Sequence record: PP175015.1
Length of the DNA stretch: 64,000 bases
From: Escherichia phage UE-S5a
Strand: one strand, 5' to 3'
Shown: positions 3,064 through 17,071 of the stretch, piece by piece
Numbering within the stretch: position 1 is the stretch's first letter
Layout: each line of letters opens with the position of its first letter
Made by a program: the position numbers and the translations under genes
Notes under the pieces: model-generated
What the model was told of the DNA's origin: nothing
The model's database searches: none
The model's input: the letters and a program-made list of their open reading frames with translations, nothing else

Positions 3064-3753
3064 ATGAGTGAACTAACTAAGCAGCAGATTGTTAATGCCC
3101 TACCTGCTAACTTCAAGAACAGTGTAACCCAGGAGTTGGTGGACACGATCAACAACATTACCCAAGACCAACTGGTTGCTGAGTCCTTCCGTGAAAACTT
3201 TATCTCCTACTCTGGTGTAATGAAGGAAGGTAAGTTTAAGACACAGGATTACATGAATGCAGTTCAGTATGTGACTTACAAACATATGGGCTATTCAAAT
3301 AAGGAAGCCTACTTCAAAACATTCCCTAACCGACAGGCAGAACTTGTAGCACGAGGAACCAGTGAGAAAGATATCAGTGCTTATGTATCTGCTTACCATA
3401 GGGGTAAATTGGTTAACCTCATCATGGAACAAAGTTTGGTTCCAGTGTGGATTGTGAACCAGGACAATTATCAAAAGGCTATCAACGTTCAGGTTGAACT
3501 AATGACCACAGCAGCAAGTGAGAAAGTAAGATGTGATGCAGCTAACTCTATCCTTACTCACTTGGCTAAACCGAAAGACCAGGTAACGAACATCAATCTG
3601 GACTTGAGAGAGAACTCCGGATTAACTGACCTCAAGGCAACACTTGCTGCATTGGCTGAACAGCAGATTAATGCAATCAATAGTGGAGTACCTACTAAAG
3701 AGGTTGCTGGTTCTAAACTAGTACGTGCAGATGAGGACATTACAGATGTCTGA
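3064..3753 (+). CDS. putative terminase small subunit
   Basis: 229-aa ORF immediately upstream of and overlapping the large terminase; position-based call. Confidence 0.4.
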   Translation: MSELTKQQIVNALPANFKNSVTQELVDTINNITQDQLVAESFRENFISYSGVMKEGKFKTQDYMNAVQYVTYKHMGYSNKEAYFKTFPNRQAELVARGTSEKDISAYVSAYHRGKLVNLIMEQSLVPVWIVNQDNYQKAINVQVELMTTAASEKVRCDAANSILTHLAKPKDQVTNINLDLRENSGLTDLKATLAALAEQQINAINSGVPTKEVAGSKLVRADEDITDV

Positions 3754-5335
3754 GTTAATTAAACAGGAACTGGATGAATGGCTGGACCAGGTGGACTACT
3801 CCCACCTTAATTCATCTAACTATGTTCCTAGTCAGTTTGCTCTTACCTTTGCCAACTTTATTAAGTTGGTTAATGGCAAAGAAGGTGAATCCAACAAAAC
3901 ACCTCCAGTTCACTTGAAGATGTTGGATAAGATGATTAGCCCGAACCAGTATGTAGTTAACCTGTGTTTCCGTGGTGCAGGTAAAACTGCTGTGTTCATG
4001 GAGTACTTTACTTTGTTCCTGGCAGTGTTTGGTCATTTACCAAGCCTGGGTAAGGTAGAAGGAATGATTTACGTATCTGACTCAATGGATAACGGTGCTA
4101 AGTCTGCACGTAAGAACATTGAGTTCCGTTACAAGAATAGTGAGTTCCTTCAGCAATGGATACCTGAGGCTACATTTACAGATAACCTTCTGGAGTTCCG
4201 TAATGTAGAAGGACATCGACTTGGTGTTAAGTTGTTTGGTGCTAAGACAGGTCTTCGTGGTACGAAGATATATGGTAAACGTCCAACACTCTGTGTACTG
4301 GATGACTTGATTAGTGATGGTGATGCTAACTCCAAGACAAGCATGGAAGCTATTAAGGATACCGTCTATAAAGGTGTGAACCATGCTCTTGACCCAACCC
4401 GTCGTAAAGTAATTTTCAATGGTACTCCCTTTAATAAGGAAGACATTATCATTGAAGCAGTTGAGTCTGGTGCATGGGATGTCAACGTATGGCCTGTATG
4501 CGAGAAGTTCCCCTGTAGCAGGGAAGAATTTCAGGGTGCATGGGATGACCGTTTCTCTTATGACTATATCAAAGCCCAATACGATATGGCAGTTAAGACG
4601 GGTAAGCTGGCAGGCTTCTATCAGGAACTTATGCTTCGTATTAGTTCTGAAGATGAGAGACTGGTTCAGGATAGTGAAATTAGGTGGTATAGCAGACAAC
4701 AACTATTAAGGATGAAGTCCTGCTACAACTATTACATTACAACTGACTTTGCTACTTCGGAGAAACAGACCAGTGACTACAGTGTCATTTCAGTTTGGGC
4801 TTATAGTTCTAATGGAGATTGGTTCTGGGTTGATGGTGTGGCTAATCGTCAGCTTATGGATAAAAACTTTGATGACTTATTCCGTCTGGTTCAGGAATAC
4901 CAACCACAAAATGTTGGGGTCGAAACCACAGGTCAACAAGGTGGATTCATCTCACTCCTTCAAAAAGAAATGATTAACCGTAATGTCTTCTTTAACTTTG
5001 CATCCTCTGAAGGTGGTAAGCCAGGCATACGTCCTGTAACCTCTAAGCTGTCACGCTTTAACCTGGTAGTTCCATGGTTCAAAGCTGGTAAGATGTACTT
5101 CCCGGAAGAGTTGAGAGATTCAACTATTATGGGTTTGTTCATGGGCCAGATTAAATTAGCTACCATTAATGGAATCAAAGGTAAGGATGACTGTATTGAT
5201 ACTATCTCTATGCTGGGTTATCTCAATCCCTGGAAACCACAGGCAGGTATGACTATGGTGGATAACAAGGGTGACCCGATGTGGGACGATGAAGAAGAAG
5301 ATAGTGTTAACCCCCTACGTTCATATATTGTGTGA
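3746..5335 (+). CDS. terminase large subunit
   Basis: ORF 3725..5335; Walker A-like RGAGKT, ATPase plus nuclease architecture of about 530 aa; likely start ATG 3746 (MSELIKQ) with GAGGA RBS. Confidence 0.8.
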   Translation: MSELIKQELDEWLDQVDYSHLNSSNYVPSQFALTFANFIKLVNGKEGESNKTPPVHLKMLDKMISPNQYVVNLCFRGAGKTAVFMEYFTLFLAVFGHLPSLGKVEGMIYVSDSMDNGAKSARKNIEFRYKNSEFLQQWIPEATFTDNLLEFRNVEGHRLGVKLFGAKTGLRGTKIYGKRPTLCVLDDLISDGDANSKTSMEAIKDTVYKGVNHALDPTRRKVIFNGTPFNKEDIIIEAVESGAWDVNVWPVCEKFPCSREEFQGAWDDRFSYDYIKAQYDMAVKTGKLAGFYQELMLRISSEDERLVQDSEIRWYSRQQLLRMKSCYNYYITTDFATSEKQTSDYSVISVWAYSSNGDWFWVDGVANRQLMDKNFDDLFRLVQEYQPQNVGVETTGQQGGFISLLQKEMINRNVFFNFASSEGGKPGIRPVTSKLSRFNLVVPWFKAGKMYFPEELRDSTIMGLFMGQIKLATINGIKGKDDCIDTISMLGYLNPWKPQAGMTMVDNKGDPMWDDEEEDSVNPLRSYIV

Positions 5336-9880: not shown

Positions 9881-12235
9881 ATGAACGAAATGTTCTCACA
9901 AGGTGGTAAAGGCTCCACTGGTATTCTTACCAACAAACAAGCCATTGCCCGTAAGTTTGGTGTTAAGCAGAATGAGGTTGTTTACTTTGCTGTAGGTGTA
10001 GACTTAGGGGAATACAAGGTCATTTATGATAAGACTACCCAGCGAGCTTACTCATTACCTGCAGACCTTGGTTCAGGGGTTACTGCTGTAAGCCTTAATA
10101 CTGCCGGTGTGTTAGTTCACTCTACTGGTAATGTTGACCTGGGTGCACTAGCTGTTTCACGAGGAGAGTTTATAACAGTCCCTGGGTCCTTCTCTTTGGG
10201 TTATGAGATTAAAGTAAAGAATGAATGTCTTGAATACCAGGGTGGGTTGTATCGATGGGATGGCGCACTGCCAAAGGTTGTAGATGCTGGGTCTGTTCCT
10301 GATATTGGTACAGGAAAGTGGCTGAGCGTCGGTGATGCAGCCCTGCGCAGCCAGATTTCAGACCCGGATGGTGCGTCCAGTTACCCTGAATTGCAGATGG
10401 CAAGATGGCGTGATGAGGGTGATGTTCGAGGCTGGGGTGCTAAAGGGGATGGTGTAACAGATAGTACGGAGAATATAGCTGCTTCACTAAATTCTCAAAA
10501 AGCTGTCGTAGCATCAGACGGTGTATTCTCTAGTTCTGGTATTAATAGTAATTACTGTAACTTAGACGGTAGAGGCAGTGGTGTACTAAGTCACCGTTCA
10601 AGTACAGGTAACTACTTAGTATTTAACAATCTACGCTCAGGTCGCTTAAGTAATATTACGGTAGAAAGTAATAAGGCGACCGATACCACTCAAGGGCAGC
10701 AGGTATCTCTTGCTGGTGGCAGTGATGTTACTATAAGTGATGTTAATTTCTCAAACGTTAAGGGCGCTGGTTTCAGTTTAATCACATACCCTAATGATGC
10801 ACCCTCTGATGGGCTTATGATTAAAGGCATTCGAGGTAGCTACTCCGGCTATGCTACTAATAAGGCGGCTGGATGCATACATGCTGATTCCTCGGTTAAC
10901 TCCCTCATAAATAACGTCATTGCTAAGAACTACCCTCAGTTCGGGGCTGTAGAACTGAAAGGTACAGCCAGTTATAACATAGTCAGCAATGTTATAGGGG
11001 CAGACTGCCAGCATGTAACTTACAACGGTACAGAAGGGTCAATAGCTCCCTCTAACAACCTTATCAATGGGGTAGTGGCTAATAATCCTAAATATGCAGC
11101 GGTTGTTGCAGGCAAAGGTAGTACCAACTTAATCTCAGATGTGCTTGTAGATTTCTCAATCTCTGACGCTAGTCAGGCTCACGGTGTTACAGTAGAAGGC
11201 TCTGATAACGTAATAAGCAATGTGCTTATGTCAGGATGTGATGGTACTAACTCTTTAGGGCAAGCTCAAACTGCTACAATTGCGCGCTTTATAGATACAG
11301 CTAATAACAACTATGCGTCTGTATTTCCTAGCTACAGTGCTACAGGTGTTATTACTTTCGAATCAGGTTCTACCCGTAACTTCGTAGAGGTAAAGCATCC
11401 GGGAAGGAGAAACGACCTTCTCAGTGCTACTGGTACTATTGAAGGTGCAGTTACTATTGACGGCACTAGTAATAGCAACGTAGTGCACGCACCTGCCTTA
11501 GGACAGTACATAGGTAGTATGTCAGGTCGGTTCGAATGGCGGATTAAGTCCATGTCACTTCCGTCAGGCGTTCTTACCTCGGCTGATAAATACAGAATGC
11601 TTGGGGATGGTGCTGTGTCATTAGCTGTAGGCGGGGGTACTTCTTCTCAAGTTCGCCTATTTACTTCTGATGGTACTTCTCGGAAAGTATCACTCACCAA
11701 CGGTAACGTGCGTCTTCCTACCAGTAGCACAGGTTATTTGCAGTTAGGTTCTGATGCAATGACCCCAGATAGTACTAATACATACGCATTAGGTTCCGCA
11801 AGTAGAGCATGGTCTGGCGGTTTTACTCAATCAGCATTCACTGTTGTCTCAGATGCTAGGGATAAAACAGAGCCTCTTAATATCTCAGATGCTTTACTGG
11901 ATGCTTGGTCTGAAGTTGACTTTGTGCAGTTTCAGTACTTGGACAGGATTGAGGAGAAGGGTGCAGACTCAGCCAGATGGCACTTTGGTATCATCGCTCA
12001 GCGAGCTAAGGAGGCTTTCGAACGTCACGGCATAGATGCACATCGCTATGGCTTCCTGTGCTTCGACAGTTGGGATGATGTATATGAGGAAGATGCCAAT
12101 GGCTCTCGTAAACTGATTACACCAGCAGGTTCCCGCTACGGTATTCGTTACGAGGAAGTACTGATATTAGAAGCTGCGTTGATGCGGCGTACTATTAAGC
12201 GTATGCAGGAAGCATTAGCTGTTATGTCTAAGTGA
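9881..12235 (+). CDS. second tailspike (putative depolymerase) with C-terminal intramolecular chaperone domain
   Basis: 784 aa; RDEGDVRGWGAKGDGVTD beta-helix motif; C-terminal SDARDKTEP...LDAWSEVDFVQFQY...WHFGIIAQR chaperone signature; AAGAGG RBS. Confidence 0.7.
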   Translation: MNEMFSQGGKGSTGILTNKQAIARKFGVKQNEVVYFAVGVDLGEYKVIYDKTTQRAYSLPADLGSGVTAVSLNTAGVLVHSTGNVDLGALAVSRGEFITVPGSFSLGYEIKVKNECLEYQGGLYRWDGALPKVVDAGSVPDIGTGKWLSVGDAALRSQISDPDGASSYPELQMARWRDEGDVRGWGAKGDGVTDSTENIAASLNSQKAVVASDGVFSSSGINSNYCNLDGRGSGVLSHRSSTGNYLVFNNLRSGRLSNITVESNKATDTTQGQQVSLAGGSDVTISDVNFSNVKGAGFSLITYPNDAPSDGLMIKGIRGSYSGYATNKAAGCIHADSSVNSLINNVIAKNYPQFGAVELKGTASYNIVSNVIGADCQHVTYNGTEGSIAPSNNLINGVVANNPKYAAVVAGKGSTNLISDVLVDFSISDASQAHGVTVEGSDNVISNVLMSGCDGTNSLGQAQTATIARFIDTANNNYASVFPSYSATGVITFESGSTRNFVEVKHPGRRNDLLSATGTIEGAVTIDGTSNSNVVHAPALGQYIGSMSGRFEWRIKSMSLPSGVLTSADKYRMLGDGAVSLAVGGGTSSQVRLFTSDGTSRKVSLTNGNVRLPTSSTGYLQLGSDAMTPDSTNTYALGSASRAWSGGFTQSAFTVVSDARDKTEPLNISDALLDAWSEVDFVQFQYLDRIEEKGADSARWHFGIIAQRAKEAFERHGIDAHRYGFLCFDSWDDVYEEDANGSRKLITPAGSRYGIRYEEVLILEAALMRRTIKRMQEALAVMSK

Positions 12236-12312: not shown

Positions 12313-12343
12313 TAAAACCCCGCTCAGGCGGGGTTTGTTTTTA
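12313..12343. terminator. bidirectional rho-independent terminator
   Basis: AAACCCCGC-tcag-GCGGGGTTT stem-loop followed by GTTTTTAT; A-rich on the other side. Confidence 0.65.
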
Positions 12344-12360
12344 TCTATTAATAATATTTC

Positions 12361-12987
12361 TTATATAGAGTTTACTGTTTGCATTGCCCTAATTGATACT
12401 GCTGTTAGGGTAATTACTTGTCCTGAGATATTAAACATACCTAACTGAATACCGTCTACCATGAAAGGGTCAGTTGAACCAAGTGTGTAAGTAGCCAGTA
12501 CGTTATCTCTGTTAGCAATGTCTGTACCCTGTACTTTAACACTAGCATCTGAACCTACTATCGTAATTCCATTGGTTCGTCTTGTTTGTGTTCTCCATTC
12601 CCTTGCTGTACCTGCACCACCTGCAATAATTCCTGATATACGAACACTGAACATTACCTGGGTATTCCTGGTTCTAATGGGGAACTTAAGATTTCCTTCT
12701 TCAATTGTTAGTGCTGCTGTACCTCCAGGTGATTTAGTTATCCCTGGTAATGAAAAGTAATTGAACCAGGATTGGTCATTTACTGCCTGGCTCCCGGTCC
12801 ATGTATACAAGTCCAGAAGAAATGTGTCTTCTAACTCTGTTGGTGGGAAAGGTAGTAGTTCTGGGGGGATCTCTGAGATGTTATTAGCAGAAACTATTCG
12901 TTCCCCATAACTTCCCACGACCAACAATCCCCCCTTCATTTTGCACACAACATCCCTACCACTTTGGAAAATATCTTTAATAGACAT
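12361..12987 (-). CDS. hypothetical protein encoded antisense to the structural operon (moron-like)
   Basis: ORF track 12361..13014 begins at GTG; ATG at 12987 has GAGGT RBS 7 nt upstream; Gly/Thr-rich beta-type 208-aa protein. Confidence 0.45.
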   Translation of the reverse strand: MSIKDIFQSGRDVVCKMKGGLLVVGSYGERIVSANNISEIPPELLPFPPTELEDTFLLDLYTWTGSQAVNDQSWFNYFSLPGITKSPGGTAALTIEEGNLKFPIRTRNTQVMFSVRISGIIAGGAGTAREWRTQTRRTNGITIVGSDASVKVQGTDIANRDNVLATYTLGSTDPFMVDGIQLGMFNISGQVITLTAVSIRAMQTVNSI

Positions 12988-13111
12988 AGTTACCTCGCAG
13001 TTGATACCAGACACTATGTCTGGATGTATCCCATCATACTAAGTATTATCTAAGAGTCATCTTATGATACGACCCTATTGGGGTTCTTAACTTTACAACT
13101 ACGGTAATATT

Positions 13112-13441
13112 ATGAATGAATCGGGCGAACTGCTTCTAGTCAGACTGGAGGAACGATTGAAGACTCTGTTTGAGAATCAGACGAGAGACAGACAGGACCG
13201 TGAGAAACTGGAGGAAACTCTGGGAGAATTACGGGATTCAATCAATGACATAGGCAATAGACTAAAAAATGTGGAGGATAGCTTAGCTAAGAATGAACCT
13301 ACTATTGAAGAGTTCATCACCATTAAGCATAAAGTTGTTGGTGCTGGAATTTTTGGTAAGTGGGTATGGGCTGGAGCAGGTGCAATTATTGGTGTATTGG
13401 CTGCTGCAAGACGGGAGATATTCGCATGGTTCGCAGGCTAA
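13112..13441 (+). CDS. coiled-coil protein with C-terminal transmembrane segment (lysis-associated candidate)
   Basis: 109 aa; charged helical N-terminus, C-terminal GAGIFGKWVWAGAGAIIGVLAAA hydrophobic segment; directly upstream of holin-like gene. Confidence 0.4.
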   Translation: MNESGELLLVRLEERLKTLFENQTRDRQDREKLEETLGELRDSINDIGNRLKNVEDSLAKNEPTIEEFITIKHKVVGAGIFGKWVWAGAGAIIGVLAAARREIFAWFAG

Positions 13442-13686
13442 AAAGAAAAGTAGAGTTAGTACCTAACTGGAAAAGGTGTTGGAAGTGGGCATCCATTCAG
13501 ATTAGTACACTTGGTTTAGTTCTATTTTCCGCTATAGATATTATCCAACCAATGGTGACAGGATTACCTCGTCACATCTTGGAAGATATTCCCCATGGTT
13601 CCAATATTGCAATCGCACTGTTTGCCTTAAACATCATAGGCAGATTAATACGATTCCGACCAAAGGAAGATTCACATGAAAGCTAA
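13426..13686 (+). CDS. putative holin / pinholin (two TM segments)
   Basis: ATG 13426 inside ORF 13360..13686; MVRRLKRK basic N-terminus followed by two hydrophobic segments; immediately upstream of endolysin. Confidence 0.45.
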   Translation: MVRRLKRKVELVPNWKRCWKWASIQISTLGLVLFSAIDIIQPMVTGLPRHILEDIPHGSNIAIALFALNIIGRLIRFRPKEDSHES

Positions 13687-14311
13687 ACAGAAACTTGCTG
13701 CAAAAGGTGGTGCAGTGGGAGGGGTTATCGCTGCTATTCTGGGGGCAGTGTTCTATATGGAAGGAGGTTATGTAAACAATCCTCGTGACCCAGGTGGGGA
13801 AACTAATCATGGTATTACCCAATCAGTAGCTAAGACTCATAAAGAAGTTCTGGCTACTGAGTATGGTTGGGATGGTTCTATGAAGGGTTTATCTAAAGAG
13901 ATGGCTGCTGAGATATACATTGATGACTATGTACTTAAACCTAACTTCGTAGCCTTCGCTGATATATCTCCTGCTGTAACGCATAAGCTAGTAGATGCTG
14001 GTGTTAATACTGGTGTAACCCGTCCTGCTAAGTGGTTGCAGATGTCTCTTAATGAAATGTCACGTAATGGCAAAGACTACCCTAAAATACAGGTTGATGG
14101 TAAAGTCGGTACAAGTACTGTTAATGCATATAAAGCATTACAGAAAAAACGGGGCAAAGTTGCAGCATGTCAGGTAATGATTAAGCTGCTTGATGCTAAA
14201 CAACTGAACCACTATACCTCATTAAACATGCCAGACTTTACGTATGGTTGGGTAGCTAACCGAATAGGCAATGTGCCACTGGAGGCATGTAATGAAGATG
14301 CTAATCTCTAA
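13676..14311 (+). CDS. SAR endolysin, GH108-type N-acetylmuramidase with peptidoglycan-binding domain
   Basis: EGGYVNNPRDPGGETNHGITQ matches the GH108 signature; N-terminal Gly/Ala-rich weakly hydrophobic segment typical of signal-anchor-release domains. Confidence 0.75.
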   Translation: MKAKQKLAAKGGAVGGVIAAILGAVFYMEGGYVNNPRDPGGETNHGITQSVAKTHKEVLATEYGWDGSMKGLSKEMAAEIYIDDYVLKPNFVAFADISPAVTHKLVDAGVNTGVTRPAKWLQMSLNEMSRNGKDYPKIQVDGKVGTSTVNAYKALQKKRGKVAACQVMIKLLDAKQLNHYTSLNMPDFTYGWVANRIGNVPLEACNEDANL

Positions 14312-14798
14312 AGGTTGGCCTTATCTTCTGGTGGTGGTCCTTGGGGCCACCATTTACTTTTGGGGCAATTCCAATGGGCAGTCTACTGTTCAAAAGAAAT
14401 GGGATGCCCAAAAGGTCGAAGACCAAAAGGCAACGCAAAAATTACAGGACAAATACAATGCTCTCCAAAGAAACCATAGTTATGAAGTCGGGTTACTCAC
14501 TTCCCGGTTGCAGACGGCTGAGAGTAATTACGCAAGCGAGCTTGCTCGCGTTAGCAGTGATTACGACAGCCGGATGCAACAGTCTGAAAGACGAGCATCG
14601 GTATATAAACGTCAAGCCGAAGCCGGAACCCTTGAGTGCAGAAGTCTTGCAAGCCATGCAGCCAGACTCGACAATAGTCTTGAAGAAGGCAGACGTTTGG
14701 TTGAAGAACTCCGGGCAACTGTTAGACTCCGTGACAGCCAACTAATTGAGTTGGGTAAACAGATTCAGGCTGACCGTAAACTTTTTGAACAGGAATAA
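14292..14798 (+). CDS. i-spanin (Rz-like)
   Basis: ORF 14271..14798; GGAGG 6 nt upstream of ATG 14292; N-terminal TM ([17 protein letters not shown]) then long charged coiled-coil region. Confidence 0.6.
14482..14745 (+). CDS. o-spanin (Rz1-like lipoprotein) embedded in the i-spanin gene in another frame
   Basis: Internal ATG at 14482 of ORF 14341..14745; signal-like [22 protein letters not shown] with lipobox-like TAGC, followed by Pro-rich segment. Confidence 0.45.
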   Translation: MKSGYSLPGCRRLRVITQASLLALAVITTAGCNSLKDEHRYINVKPKPEPLSAEVLQAMQPDSTIVLKKADVWLKNSGQLLDSVTAN

Positions 14799-14800
14799 CT

Positions 14801-17071
14801 ATGGAACACCAAGACACTTTTAAGCCTTTACCAGACCCGGCTCAATCAGAGAAGTTAACGGACTGGAAGAAGGAACCAAGTATCCAATTACTGAAGGGTG
14901 ATTTGGAATCTGCTAAACCTGCTCACGATGCAATCATGGCACAGATTCGTGAGTGGAATGATTTAATGGAAGTAAAGGGTAAGGCTAAACCCCCAAAGGT
15001 TAAGGGACGCTCGCAAGTCCAGCCTAGACTGGTTCGCCGTCAGGCAGAGTGGCGTTATGCTCCATTGTCTGAACCATTCCTCTCGTCTAACAAACTATTT
15101 AAGGTAACTCCGGTTACTTTTGAAGATGAGTTAGCTGCACGCCAGAATGAGCTAGTTCTTAACTACCAATTCCGTACTCAGCTTAATAAAGTAAAACTGG
15201 TAGATGATTACGTGCATAGTGTCGTAGATGACGGTACTGGTATTGCTCGTATTGGTTGGGAACGTAAGACAGTTAAGATTAAAACAGAAACACCAGTCTT
15301 CCAGTTGTACCCAATTGAGAACCAGGAACAAGCAGATATTCTTCAGCAGGCTTTGCAGCTTCAGGCAGAGAATCCTCGTGAGTATGATGAAACGATGCCA
15401 GAAGATATTAAGGAAGCTGTTAACTACTTCAATGAAACTGGAGAAGCTACTTATGCAATTCAGACAGGGGTCACTGAAGTAGAAGTAGAAAAAGCACTGG
15501 TTAACAGACCTACCGTTGAAATGCTTAATCCTAATAACGTAGTTATTGACCCAAGCTGTAATGGTGATTTGGACAAGGCTCTTTATGCAGTCATCTCATT
15601 TGAGACTTGTAAAGCAGACCTCATGAAAAACAAGGACCGTTACCACAACCTGGATAAGATTGACTGGGAAAGTTCCAGTCCTATGACTGACCCAGACCAT
15701 GAAAGTAAAACTCCAGGTGACTTCCAGTTTAAGGATGCACTTCGCAAGAAAGTAATTGCTTATGAGTACTGGGGATTCTACGACATTAACGATGATGGTT
15801 CGCTGGAACCAATTGTTGCTACCTGGATTGGTTCTACTCTTATTCGTATGGAGAAGAACCCATTCCCAGATGGTAAGTTACCATTGGTAGTTGTTCCTTA
15901 TATGCCTCGTAAACGTGAACTCTATGGTGAAGCTGATGCTGAATTGCTAGGAGATAACCAAGCAATTCTTGGTGCAACCATGCGTGGGATGATTGACCTG
16001 TTGGGCCGAAGTGCAAATGGTCAACGTGGTTATCCTAAAGGGATGTTAGATACCCTGAACCGTCGTCGATACGATGATGGACAAGACTACGAATATAACC
16101 CAATGCAGGGCAATCCTAGTCAGGCCATTATGGAACACAAGTTCCCTGAGTTACCCCAGTCGGCAATAGTAATGACTCAGATGCAAAACCAGGAAGCAGA
16201 AGCACTAACGGGTGTTAAAGCATTCTCGGGTGGTGTAACTGGTGAAGCTTACGGAGATGTAGCTGCTGGTATTCGTGGTGTACTAGATGCAGCATCCAAA
16301 CGTGAGATGGCAATCCTTCGTCGATTAGCTAAGGGTATGGCAGACATTGGTACTAAGATTTGTGCAATGAATGCTGTGTTCTTATCTGAGAAAGAAGTAG
16401 TACGTATTACTAACGAGCAGTACGTAGAGATTAACCGTGAAGACCTTAAAGGTAATTTCGACATTGAAGTTGATATTAATACTGCTGAGATTGATAACCA
16501 GAAATCCCAGGACTTGAGCTTCATGGTTCAAACGTTAGGTAATACGGTTGACCAGACTATTACGTTATCTCTTGTAGCTAAGATTGCAGAACTTAAACGT
16601 ATGCCAGACCTTGCTCATGAGTTACGTACATGGCAACCACAACCAGACCCTATGGAAGAACAGCTTAAGCAATTGGCAATTCAGAAAGCACAGCTTGAGA
16701 ACGAAGAGCTGCAAAGTAAGATTGCACTCAATATGGCTAAGGCTAAAGAGGCTGCTTCTAGTGGTGACCTTAAAGATCTGGATTATCTGGAACAGGAATC
16801 TGGTACTAAACATGCTCGTGACATGGAAAAACAAAAAGCACAATCCCAAGGAAACCAAAACCTTCAGATAACTAAGGCGTTGACAACACCTACTAAAGAA
16901 GGTGAAACTACCCCCAACATATCTGCTGCTGTTGGATATAACGCTTTGACTAACGGGAACTCTATACCAGAACGTGACTTAGCTGCACAACAAGACCCAG
17001 CTTATTCACTTAGTTCCCAATTCTATGACCCTAGCCAAGACCCAGCATCGGCTCTTGGCATGAACTTGTAA
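14801..17071 (+). CDS. portal protein
   Basis: 756 aa, size and position in N4-like head module; AGGAA RBS. Confidence 0.7.

Follow-up and report, generated by a model that had tools for sequence, protein, structure and literature searches.

The region at positions 13112-14798 of the window, the 64,000-nucleotide stretch of Escherichia phage UE-S5a (PP175015.1) analyzed here, is very probably an ordinary, late-expressed five-gene lysis cassette of an N4-like coliphage, with N4-type roles assigned to its products by homology. This type of cassette is already known as the N4-type pinholin/SAR-endolysin/embedded-spanin system, and the N4 cassette has been dissected experimentally in a preprint (Awuah et al., bioRxiv 2025, PMC12642591); every functional step proposed below is transferred from N4, at 57-79% identity. 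Compared with the initial annotation, the roles of the two small membrane proteins are probably reversed, in that the 109-aa protein would be the pinholin and the two-TM protein the regulator. The features of the region are as follows (window coordinates):

13112..13441, plus strand: gp63 homologue, probable pinholin, 109 aa (68.5% identity to N4 gp63; phrog_5211, E = 2.7e-50)
13157..13159, plus strand: internal TTG in gp63, with GGAGG at 13146-13150, at the position of the N4 alternative start Met17
13360..13425, plus strand: possible N-terminal extension of the gp62 homologue, from GTG 13360 (108 aa) or ATG 13366 (106 aa)
13426..13686, plus strand: two-TM gp62 homologue, 86 aa, probably a holin-like regulator of lysis (PF25612; phrog_1356; 67% identity to N4 gp62)
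13676..14311, plus strand: gp61 homologue, predicted SAR endolysin, 211 aa (PF05838; PF09374; 70% identity to N4 gp61)
14292..14798, plus strand: gp60 homologue, predicted i-spanin, 168 aa (phrog_6197 'Rz-like spanin', E = 1.5e-77; 57% identity to N4 gp60)
14458..14745, plus strand: gp60a homologue, predicted o-spanin, in the +1 frame wholly inside the i-spanin gene (tblastn; lipoprotein pattern; 79% identity to N4 gp60a)

Over 13000-14900, the sequence matched Escherichia phage UE-M3, a Gamaleyavirus of the Schitoviridae, with 100% identity. All five ORFs described in the initial annotation were present on the plus strand at the positions it had assigned, and its reading of the region as a lysis cassette was supported by the presence of five N4 homologues arranged as in N4 and followed, as there, by the portal gene. 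Identity to phage N4 was 68.5% for gp63, 67% for gp62, 70% for gp61, 57% for gp60, and 79% for gp60a. The order gp63-gp62-gp61-gp60(/gp60a), with the portal gene directly downstream, is that of N4 and is common to Piffle (Stenotrophomonas), Axy24 (Achromobacter), Frozen (Erwinia), and Zuri (Pseudomonas); it was also observed in IME11, Klebsiella phage PW7, Moo19, and PhAPEC5. When related loci were compared by tblastn (n = 28), all five genes were recovered, except the two-TM gene in Erwinia phage Frozen, in which tblastn missed the two-TM protein and a "holin" is annotated at that place. A scan for promoters and terminators within the cassette, with hits inside CDS disregarded, gave no operon-splitting signal above shuffle expectation. 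The minus-strand ORFs in the cassette were all <=82 aa and were treated as by-products. The annotation of Axy24 has a minus-strand call where the spanins should be, apparently an artefact of gene calling.

The 109-aa protein aligned with N4 gp63 at 68.5% identity over 108 aa. It comprises a coiled coil (residues ~9-58), the 'Receiver' PTIEEFITIKHK (residues 63-74), a Gly/Ala-rich C-terminal TM helix (residues ~77-99), and a short tail. Both the coiled-coil N-terminus and the single C-terminal TM segment proposed in the initial annotation were recovered: residues 9-58 kept an unbroken a/d heptad register, with an a/d enrichment that none of 20000 shuffles reached, and the hydropathy profile showed one hydrophobic region, near the C-terminus, with the best 19-residue window at 80-98. 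A single-sequence AlphaFold2 model was all-helical at low confidence (mean pLDDT 53), which indicates a helical tendency only. Twenty-one columns were invariant among 10 diverse relatives, mostly within residues 63-106 (Receiver and TM), and PTIEEFITIKHKVVGAG is identical in N4. Rapid-lysis mutations of N4 map to gp63 S62, T65, I70, T71, and I72, and to gp61 G12 and G13 (PMC12642591). Four of the five gp63 positions are identical in the present protein (N4 T65, I70, T71, and I72 being T64, I69, T70, and I71 here), and the fifth, S62, is N61. The predicted topology is a cytoplasmic N-terminus with the C-terminus out; the two Arg residues after the TM were counted against N-in/C-out, and prediction tools disagree on the topology of N4 gp63 according to its authors (PMC12642591). 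A Pfam scan of the 109-aa protein gave only sub-threshold matches to unrelated eukaryotic coiled-coil families, and the hits of a large protein search, about 300 in number, were near-identical N4-like proteins whose names were uninformative.

Two start codons were considered for this gene. The GenBank CDS of UE-M3 begins at TTG 13157, as do many 94-aa gene calls in the databases, and a start at this codon would yield a possible 94-aa isoform of gp63. Because the equivalent codon is CTG, CTT, TTC, or TTT in most relatives, the TTG is not conserved as a start. The ARLEER motif lies upstream of the TTG and is kept even in distant relatives; thus, ATG 13112 is the conserved gp63 start.

The assignment of roles to the two small membrane proteins follows the N4 phenotypes. 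The cloned gp60-63 cassette of N4 caused rapid lysis, and its gp63, with a single C-terminal TM and a helical cytoplasmic N-terminus, was identified as a pinholin that complemented the S21 pinholin defect but not the lambda S105 defect and that killed upon triggering, its small lethal holes letting out a SAR endolysin and not a soluble one (PMC12642591). Six rapid-lysis alleles were found in gp63, and no gp62 mutant was found among more than 60 rapid lysers (PMC12642591). Thus, N4 gp63 is the holin because it complements S21, kills on triggering, and bears rapid-lysis mutations. N4 gp62 was dispensable for lysis, its deletion advanced lysis in infection, and the authors classed it as a regulator of lysis whose holin-like activity is late and triggerable (PMC12642591). 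In light of these gp63 and gp62 phenotypes, the wording 'possible antiholin or lysis regulator', which the initial annotation applied to the 109-aa protein, suits the two-TM ORF better, and the earlier assignment of roles, with the two-TM ORF as holin-like, was probably inverted. The division into pinholin and regulator is not absolute, because gp62 is also lethal and triggerable and because either gp62 or gp63 was enough for rapid plasmid-driven lysis (PMC12642591).

The opposite assignment appears improbable; in it, the SAR endolysin would be freed by the two-TM 86-aa protein as a true (class II-like) holin or pinholin, with the 109-aa protein serving as an antiholin or as a regulator facing the cytoplasm. 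This assignment agrees with the label 'holin' given to the two-TM protein in phrog_1356 and most GenBank/RefSeq records, and with the curated annotation of Piffle, in which the gp63 homologue is a 'putative antiholin'; however, the 'holin' labels were propagated by homology. N4 gp62 alone kills after CCCP triggering and slowly frees soluble lambda endolysin, and in N4 without gp63 it supports rapid plasmid lysis with a delay of only about 20 min, but it complemented neither holin defect within two hours. Moreover, deletion of gp62 left lysis unimpaired and, in infection, advanced it, the >60 rapid lysers included no gp62 mutant, and it is gp63 that complemented the S21 pinholin defect, killed immediately, and yielded the six rapid-lysis alleles.

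It is less probable still that the cassette encodes two independent holins, the 109-aa protein making early pinholes and the 86-aa protein larger late holes as a back-up or under particular conditions, with the 86-aa protein not regulating the 109-aa protein. A route of this kind has been proposed for the multiple holin-like proteins of phage P1, and in N4 the effects of gp62 and gp63 were independent in a soluble-endolysin background, the 17.8-kDa lambda endolysin was released late by gp62, and either protein sufficed in plasmid-driven lysis. With the SAR endolysin, however, gp62 and gp63 of N4 acted synergistically, and large holes are unnecessary for an endolysin of this kind; deletion of gp62 made lysis faster, not slower, and the two genes co-occurred in 60 of 65 N4-like genomes. 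Finally, the possibility that the 109-aa protein is part of the virion structure, without a lysis role, can practically be dismissed, since the names 'tail needle protein gp26' and 'tail length tape-measure protein' in many GenBank records, presumably derived from coiled-coil similarity, are all that speaks for it, whereas the protein matched no structural Pfam or PHROG family, 109 aa with a C-terminal TM helix are incompatible with a tape measure, the gp63 homologue always heads the lysis cassette, and pinholin activity was demonstrated for N4 gp63.

The 86-aa protein, as the probable regulator, scored 53.8 bits (E = 3e-14) with Pfam PF25612 (DUF7940), for which the gathering score is 27, and also matched phrog_1356 'holin'. 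Its hydropathy profile contained two hydrophobic stretches, in agreement with the two TMs proposed earlier, and the net charge of its first 21 residues is +7; judged from the positive-inside rule alone, the protein is probably N-in/C-in. The start is preceded, at a distance of 8 nt, by a GGGAG Shine-Dalgarno sequence, and the ORF shares its first 16 nt with the end of gp63. With the possible extension upstream of this start, the protein would be the equivalent of the 109-aa form employed for N4 gp62, for which a dual-start motif producing long and short forms has been proposed. In the present phage, the frame of the extension is open from GTG 13360, and most Enquatrovirinae as well as Axy24 also keep it open. 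It is interrupted by a stop in Moo19 and one other relative (L017), and is absent in Piffle and Zuri, which makes 4 of 21 distinct relatives without an intact extension. The third positions of gp63, which are the first positions of the extension, had a diversity of 0.28 across the extension versus 0.33-0.36 in the adjacent sequence, and the analysis revealed no added constraint on the overlapped gp63 codons and no selection signature for the extension. The extension is probably not a conserved coding segment.

The N4 counterpart of the 211-aa protein was reportedly first described as an endolysin by Stojkovic and Rothman-Denes in 2007. In the present phage, the protein matched PF05838 (Glyco_hydro_108; 71.8 bits vs. 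a gathering score of 21.2, E = 7e-20) and PF09374 (PG_binding_3; 32.6 bits vs. a gathering score of 24.6, E = 9e-8), and its solved structural relatives include 6v3z (E = 4.7e-27) and 6v40. It contains the motif EGGYVNNPRDPGGETNHG, and the EGGY motif of the GH108 N-acetylmuramidase domain starts at residue 29 (E29). The SAR segment, residues 7-25 (LAAKGGAVGGVIAAILGAV), is the best 19-residue window, consists of 58% Gly/Ala/Ser/Thr, and is flanked by lysines (K2, K4, K6, and K10). In a manual alignment of the SAR segments, G15/G16 corresponded to G12/G13 of N4 gp61, at which Glu substitutions led to rapid lysis (PMC12642591). N4 gp61 is experimentally a SAR endolysin, which is held at the membrane with its signal segment uncleaved, is let go on depolarisation, works with a pinholin, and leaks when alone (PMC12642591). 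The PF05838 match, the Gly/Ala/Ser/Thr-rich N-terminus, and the 70% identity to N4 gp61 support the GH108 SAR endolysin named in the initial annotation, with tethering and release predicted by analogy to the N4 protein.

The two remaining ORFs were examined as candidate spanins. The gp60 homologue has a TM-like window at residues 3-21, a periplasmic helical domain, and a single periplasmic Cys (C116); a heptad pattern was seen over residues 119-168 (p about 0.005). Its longest ORF begins at 14271, a start that was dropped in favor of 14292 on the basis of the Shine-Dalgarno sequence and GenBank annotation: ATG 14292, the more likely start, has GGAGG 7 nt upstream and is the annotated start in UE-M3 and St11Ph5. 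In the o-spanin frame, initiation at ATG 14458 would give a 95-aa precursor and initiation at ATG 14482 an 87-aa one, with the same mature protein. The initial annotation had placed this ORF at 14482..14745; the end and the embedding in the i-spanin gene stood, and the start is ambiguous. ATG 14458 has a better Shine-Dalgarno sequence than 14482 and is the annotated start in St11Ph5, and in one related locus (L008, with a gp63 99% identical) the codon equivalent to 14482 encodes Thr, leaving the equivalent of 14458 as the sole ATG.

The o-spanin precursor carries TAGC, ending in the lipobox Cys, and would give a 56-residue mature lipoprotein, equal to the 56 residues in N4. The Thr at -3 falls outside the strict consensus [LVI][ASTVI][GAS]C but fits a broader lipoprotein pattern, which we take to be PROSITE PS00013, and the +2 residue is Asn rather than Asp. 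At the same Cys, which is kept in every relative examined, relatives carry IVGC (N4), LAGC, LSGC, LLGC, or ISAC; the IVGC lipobox of N4 was shown to be functional. No free Cys is present in the mature o-spanin, whose motif NVKP...QAMQP.ST...SG.LLDSVT is conserved; searches with the o-spanin gave no Pfam match and no PHROGs family. Conservation in frame, which the initial annotation had proposed as a check on the embedded ORF, was observed by tblastn in all 28 loci at 46-98% identity, including those of Stenotrophomonas, Achromobacter, Erwinia, and Pseudomonas phages. In addition, the third-position diversity of the i-spanin gene was 0.357 outside but 0.096 inside the mature o-spanin overlap (Mann-Whitney p = 9e-10), and this collapse of synonymous diversity supports a dual-coding signature. 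The frame conservation, the invariant Cys, and the reduced diversity together exceed what chance would be expected to produce. N4 gp60 and gp60a complement lambda Rz/Rz1 defects (PMC12642591). These results support the gp60 and gp60a homologues as a nested i-/o-spanin pair, which would disrupt the outer membrane by analogy to N4.

We propose the following lysis sequence, the steps of which were shown in N4 and are carried over here by homology. The endolysin would be exported by Sec, and its weakly hydrophobic SAR segment would keep the enzyme tethered to the inner membrane and restrained, the catalytic glutamate of EGGY lying within a few residues of the membrane. The 109-aa protein may build up in the inner membrane through its single Gly/Ala-rich helix, the coiled coil and Receiver facing the cytoplasm, until at a set time it triggers and opens small, lethal holes through which the membrane potential collapses. 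Depolarisation would free the SAR endolysin into the periplasm, where it would cleave peptidoglycan. The 86-aa two-TM protein may act as an accessory timing tuner, its N4 counterpart having slow holin-like toxicity and synergy with gp63. Once the wall is gone, the i-spanin and the o-spanin lipoprotein, together spanning the periplasm, would disrupt the outer membrane.

The N4 segment corresponding to the Receiver has been proposed to mediate lysis inhibition. N4 shows lysis inhibition, and G7C has been reported to be without it. We take the genus of the present phage to be G7C-like, with G7C as the reference phage of the group; the report on G7C and the N61 in place of N4 S62 were both counted against the N4-based explanation. 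The Receiver is kept almost letter for letter beside a fast-diverging coiled coil, and this clade has the TTG together with a strong GGAGG. Speculatively, the Receiver and coiled coil might be a general cytoplasm-facing timing sensor of a class of tail-anchored pinholins rather than a device for lysis inhibition in particular, and the 109- and 94-aa isoforms might further constitute a holin/antiholin pair; we consider this unlikely. Such a pair, if real, would explain why the two-TM partner is dispensable.

The gain for biology is small, and the main worth of these assignments lies in database curation: the gp63 homologue is widely mislabelled as 'tail length tape-measure protein' or 'tail needle protein', the two-TM protein bears a 'holin' label carried over by homology, and many records, that of UE-M3 among them, lack the embedded o-spanin. 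For Gamaleyavirus therapy against uropathogenic E. coli, the lysis-timing gene (13112-13441) would be relevant to the engineering of burst size and timing.

Among known systems, the cassette resembles that of N4 in its five genes, their order and portal neighbour, the nearly identical Receiver and TM, the SAR Gly pair, the 56-residue mature o-spanin, and the +1 embedding. It differs from N4 in the diverged coiled coil of gp63, in Asn for N4 S62, in TTG for N4 Met17, in a TAGC rather than IVGC lipobox, and in the N-terminus of the i-spanin. The cassette proteins of Gamaleyavirus St11Ph5 (gp63, gp62, gp61, gp60.2, and gp60.1) and other G7C-like phages are 95-99% identical; all five genes are annotated in St11Ph5, including the embedded o-spanin (gp60.1), with no substantive difference from the present cassette, whereas in the UE-M3 record the o-spanin is unannotated and gp63 is called 'tail needle protein' from the TTG.

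With phage 21 (S21-68/R21/Rz-Rz1), the cassette would share a small-hole holin, a SAR endolysin released by depolarisation, and an embedded two-component spanin. S21 has two TMs, one of them SAR-like, and a dual-start antiholin. There is no sequence relationship between the two systems: the predicted holin of the present phage combines a single C-terminal TM with a large coiled coil on the cytoplasmic side, and the endolysin is of the GH108 rather than the T4-lysozyme type. The predicted pinholin is also comparable to the T4 holin T with its antiholins RI/RIII, as a single-TM holin with a soluble domain that receives a regulatory signal and a link to lysis inhibition. In T4 T, the TM is N-terminal and the large domain lies in the periplasm, and the protein forms large holes for a soluble endolysin. 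The two proteins show no homology, and the large domain here is N-terminal and predicted to be cytoplasmic. Compared with lambda Rz/Rz1, the spanin family is different, N4 gp60/gp60a being its type members (PMC12642591), and the three homotypic intermolecular disulfides of lambda contrast with the one periplasmic Cys of the i-spanin and an o-spanin without free Cys. As in lambda, however, the o-spanin gene lies wholly within the i-spanin gene in the +1 frame, here spanning about 0.33-0.89 of the i-spanin length versus the typical 0.4-1.0.

At 13112-14798 on the plus strand, homologues of the phage N4 genes gp63, gp62, gp61, gp60 and gp60a were found in the same order, which bears out the initial annotation of a lysis cassette; all of the open reading frames (ORFs) that it listed were present.

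Features of the cassette and its surroundings
Ending at 12235: tailspike gene, 784 aa, annotated 'K5 lyase', upstream of the cassette
12315-12336: strong, bidirectional terminator-like hairpin between the tailspike gene and a convergent 217-aa ORF
12361-13014, minus strand: 217-aa ORF between the tailspike gene and the cassette; phrog_17779 (unknown function)
13112-13441, plus strand: gp63 homologue, 109 aa; ORF with heptads and one hydrophobic stretch
13426-13686, plus strand: gp62 homologue, 86 aa; ORF, DUF7940, PHROG 1356
13676-14311, plus strand: gp61 homologue, 211 aa; Glyco_hydro_108 and PG_binding_3
14292-14798, plus strand: i-spanin (gp60 homologue); PHROG 6197, E = 1.5e-77
14458 or 14482 to 14745, plus strand, +1 frame of the i-spanin: embedded o-spanin ORF; lipoprotein pattern, tblastn
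Starting at 14801: portal gene, downstream of the cassette, 3 nt past the i-spanin stop

In N4, the cloned gp60-63 block caused rapid lysis, gp61 behaved as a leaky SAR endolysin that functioned with a pinholin, and gp60 together with gp60a complemented lambda spanin defects (Awuah et al. 2025, PMC12642591). The SAR-endolysin reading was supported for the gp61 homologue, in which the Glyco_hydro_108 and PG_binding_3 matches were both above threshold, and residues 7-25, immediately N-terminal to the EGGY motif, were Lys-flanked and 58% Gly/Ala/Ser/Thr; solved relatives exist (e.g., 6v3z). When the SAR segments of the two endolysins were aligned by hand, G15/G16 of the window corresponded to N4 G12/G13, at which Glu substitutions led to rapid lysis (PMC12642591).

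The nested spanins also held up. Across the comparison set of 28 related loci, tblastn matched the embedded-frame protein in all 28 (46-98% identity), including those of Stenotrophomonas, Achromobacter, Erwinia, and Pseudomonas phages, and the Cys was conserved together with a motif downstream of it, NVKP...QAMQP.ST...SG.LLDSVT. Among 19 distinct Enquatrovirinae i-spanin genes aligned by codon, diversity at third positions was 0.096 over the stretch shared with the mature o-spanin versus 0.357 outside the overlap (Mann-Whitney p = 9e-10), and its ratio to first-plus-second-position diversity was 0.97 versus 1.67; such a drop is expected when both frames are under constraint. Thus, the embedded ORF has been kept in frame among relatives. 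Its product matched a lipoprotein pattern, which we take to be PROSITE PS00013, and the mature protein would be 56 residues long and carry Asn at +2. Two starts are possible for the o-spanin: ATG 14458 is preceded by a better Shine-Dalgarno sequence, is annotated in St11Ph5, and corresponds to the only ATG remaining in one locus (L008) with a 99% identical gp63; with ATG 14482 the Cys would be residue 32, which is more typical. In the lipobox-like TAGC, the residue at position -3 does not fit the consensus [LVI][ASTVI][GAS]C given by Kongari et al. For the i-spanin, ATG 14292, which is the annotated start and has GGAGG 7 nt upstream, is the likely start rather than the longest-ORF start at 14271. 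The RefSeq record of Achromobacter phage Axy24 lacks spanin genes at 3675-4193 and carries just a 57-aa minus-strand 'hypothetical protein'; both spanin frames were intact there by tblastn, and this is therefore an annotation gap in the reference record.

The two small membrane proteins were read differently. The two-TM ORF had been called holin-like and the coiled-coil ORF a possible antiholin or lysis regulator; by homology to the experiments of one preprint on N4, these roles are most likely inverted. N4 gp63 killed immediately and complemented an S21 pinholin defect but not lambda S105, and six spontaneous rapid-lysis alleles (S62F, T65I, I70N/T, T71A, and I72L) fell in a segment that the authors named the Receiver domain (PMC12642591). 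N4 gp62 was non-essential, its deletion advanced lysis, and it showed slow, triggerable holin-like toxicity, for which the authors' term was lysis regulator (PMC12642591). In the window, the hydrophobic residues of the gp63 homologue keep to one unbroken a/d heptad register over residues 9-58, an enrichment reached by none of 20000 shuffles, and a single hydrophobic, Gly/Ala-rich stretch lies close to the C-terminus. Its PTIEEFITIKHKVVGAG is identical in N4, as are four of the five rapid-lysis positions, the exception being N4 S62 (N61 here). The gp62 homologue has a strongly basic N-terminus and two hydrophobic stretches, with an above-threshold Pfam DUF7940 match and a match to PHROG 1356 'holin'. 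We proposed that the 109-aa protein is probably the pinholin and the 86-aa protein probably an accessory regulator. Because the N4 study itself shows overlapping gp62 and gp63 activities, two rivals were retained: the reverse assignment, with the 86-aa protein as holin and the 109-aa protein as antiholin or regulator, agrees with the PHROG label and appears unlikely against the N4 complementation and deletion phenotypes; that both proteins act as holins seems very improbable. The Receiver is intact in this G7C-like phage, although G7C was reported to be without lysis inhibition.

ATG 13112 gives the conserved gp63 product, since the ARLEER motif upstream of the internal in-frame TTG 13157 is conserved even in distant relatives. 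This TTG has GGAGG 5 nt upstream (13146-13159), matches the alternative start Met17 of N4 in position, and is where the UE-M3 GenBank entry and many metagenomic gene calls begin gp63 (94 aa). This clade may make a second isoform, which would not be a family feature, because most relatives have CTG, CTT, TTC, or TTT at that codon. The conserved form of gp62 is that of 86 aa, whose start has GGGAG 8 nt before it. The N-terminal extension (the N4 '109-aa' form) is open from GTG 13360, contains a stop in Moo19 and in a metagenomic relative (L017), and is absent from Piffle and Zuri. The extension looks conserved because the other frame there encodes the conserved TM segment of gp63, since gp63 third positions (gp62-frame first positions) stay variable over it (0.28 versus 0.33-0.36 nearby).

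Consecutive cassette genes overlap by 11-20 nt (i-spanin start taken as ATG 14292), and the arrangement is thus consistent with a single transcription unit with translational coupling. Upstream, the GC-rich hairpin (AAACCCCGC-TCAG-GCGGGGTTT, T-runs on both sides) looks like a bidirectional intrinsic terminator. The 217-aa ORF had no Pfam match, and UE-M3 labels it 'tail needle knob'; minus-strand genes are unusual in the late region of N4-like phages. The ORF is limited to some Gamaleyaviruses, Salmonella N4-like phages ('protease'), and Aeromonas and Klebsiella phages, which match just its C-terminal ~150 aa ('collagen-like').

Unannotated fragments 66-93% identical to the 13112-13441 and 12361-13014 genes were observed in ~155-160 kb myovirus records (Salmonella phage SKML-39, positions 1-186 and 4897-5131; Escherichia phages PC3, YX22, and AV101), and 99%-identical gp63 proteins were assigned to a 2.76-Mb 'Enterococcus faecium' contig; both are probably contamination or chimeric assemblies.

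By megablast, 13000-14900 was 100% identical to Escherichia phage UE-M3 (PP301342.1; Schitoviridae, Enquatrovirinae, Gamaleyavirus) and matched 87 further records, almost all of N4-like phages. UE-M3 labels the region 'tail needle protein', 'holin', 'endolysin', and 'Rz-like spanin', followed by the portal gene, and leaves the o-spanin unannotated; the annotation of St11Ph5, a close relative, follows N4 numbering for these genes (gp63, gp62, gp61, gp60.2, and gp60.1) and includes the embedded spanin. Two PhAPEC5-type loci (L018 and L028) were 97-98% identical to the window in endolysin and i-spanin versus 71% in gp63 and 84% in gp62, a mosaic break inside the cassette, which suggests that recombination took place between the two membrane-protein genes and the endolysin and spanin pair. 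The N4 gene order followed by the portal gene is repeated across Schitoviridae. Annotated in close relatives and functionally characterised in N4, the cassette is already known and is a routine family member, with identities to N4 of 68.5% (gp63), 67% (gp62), 70% (gp61), 57% (gp60), and 79% (gp60a), and with a mature o-spanin of the same length as that reported for N4 gp60a (PMC12642591).
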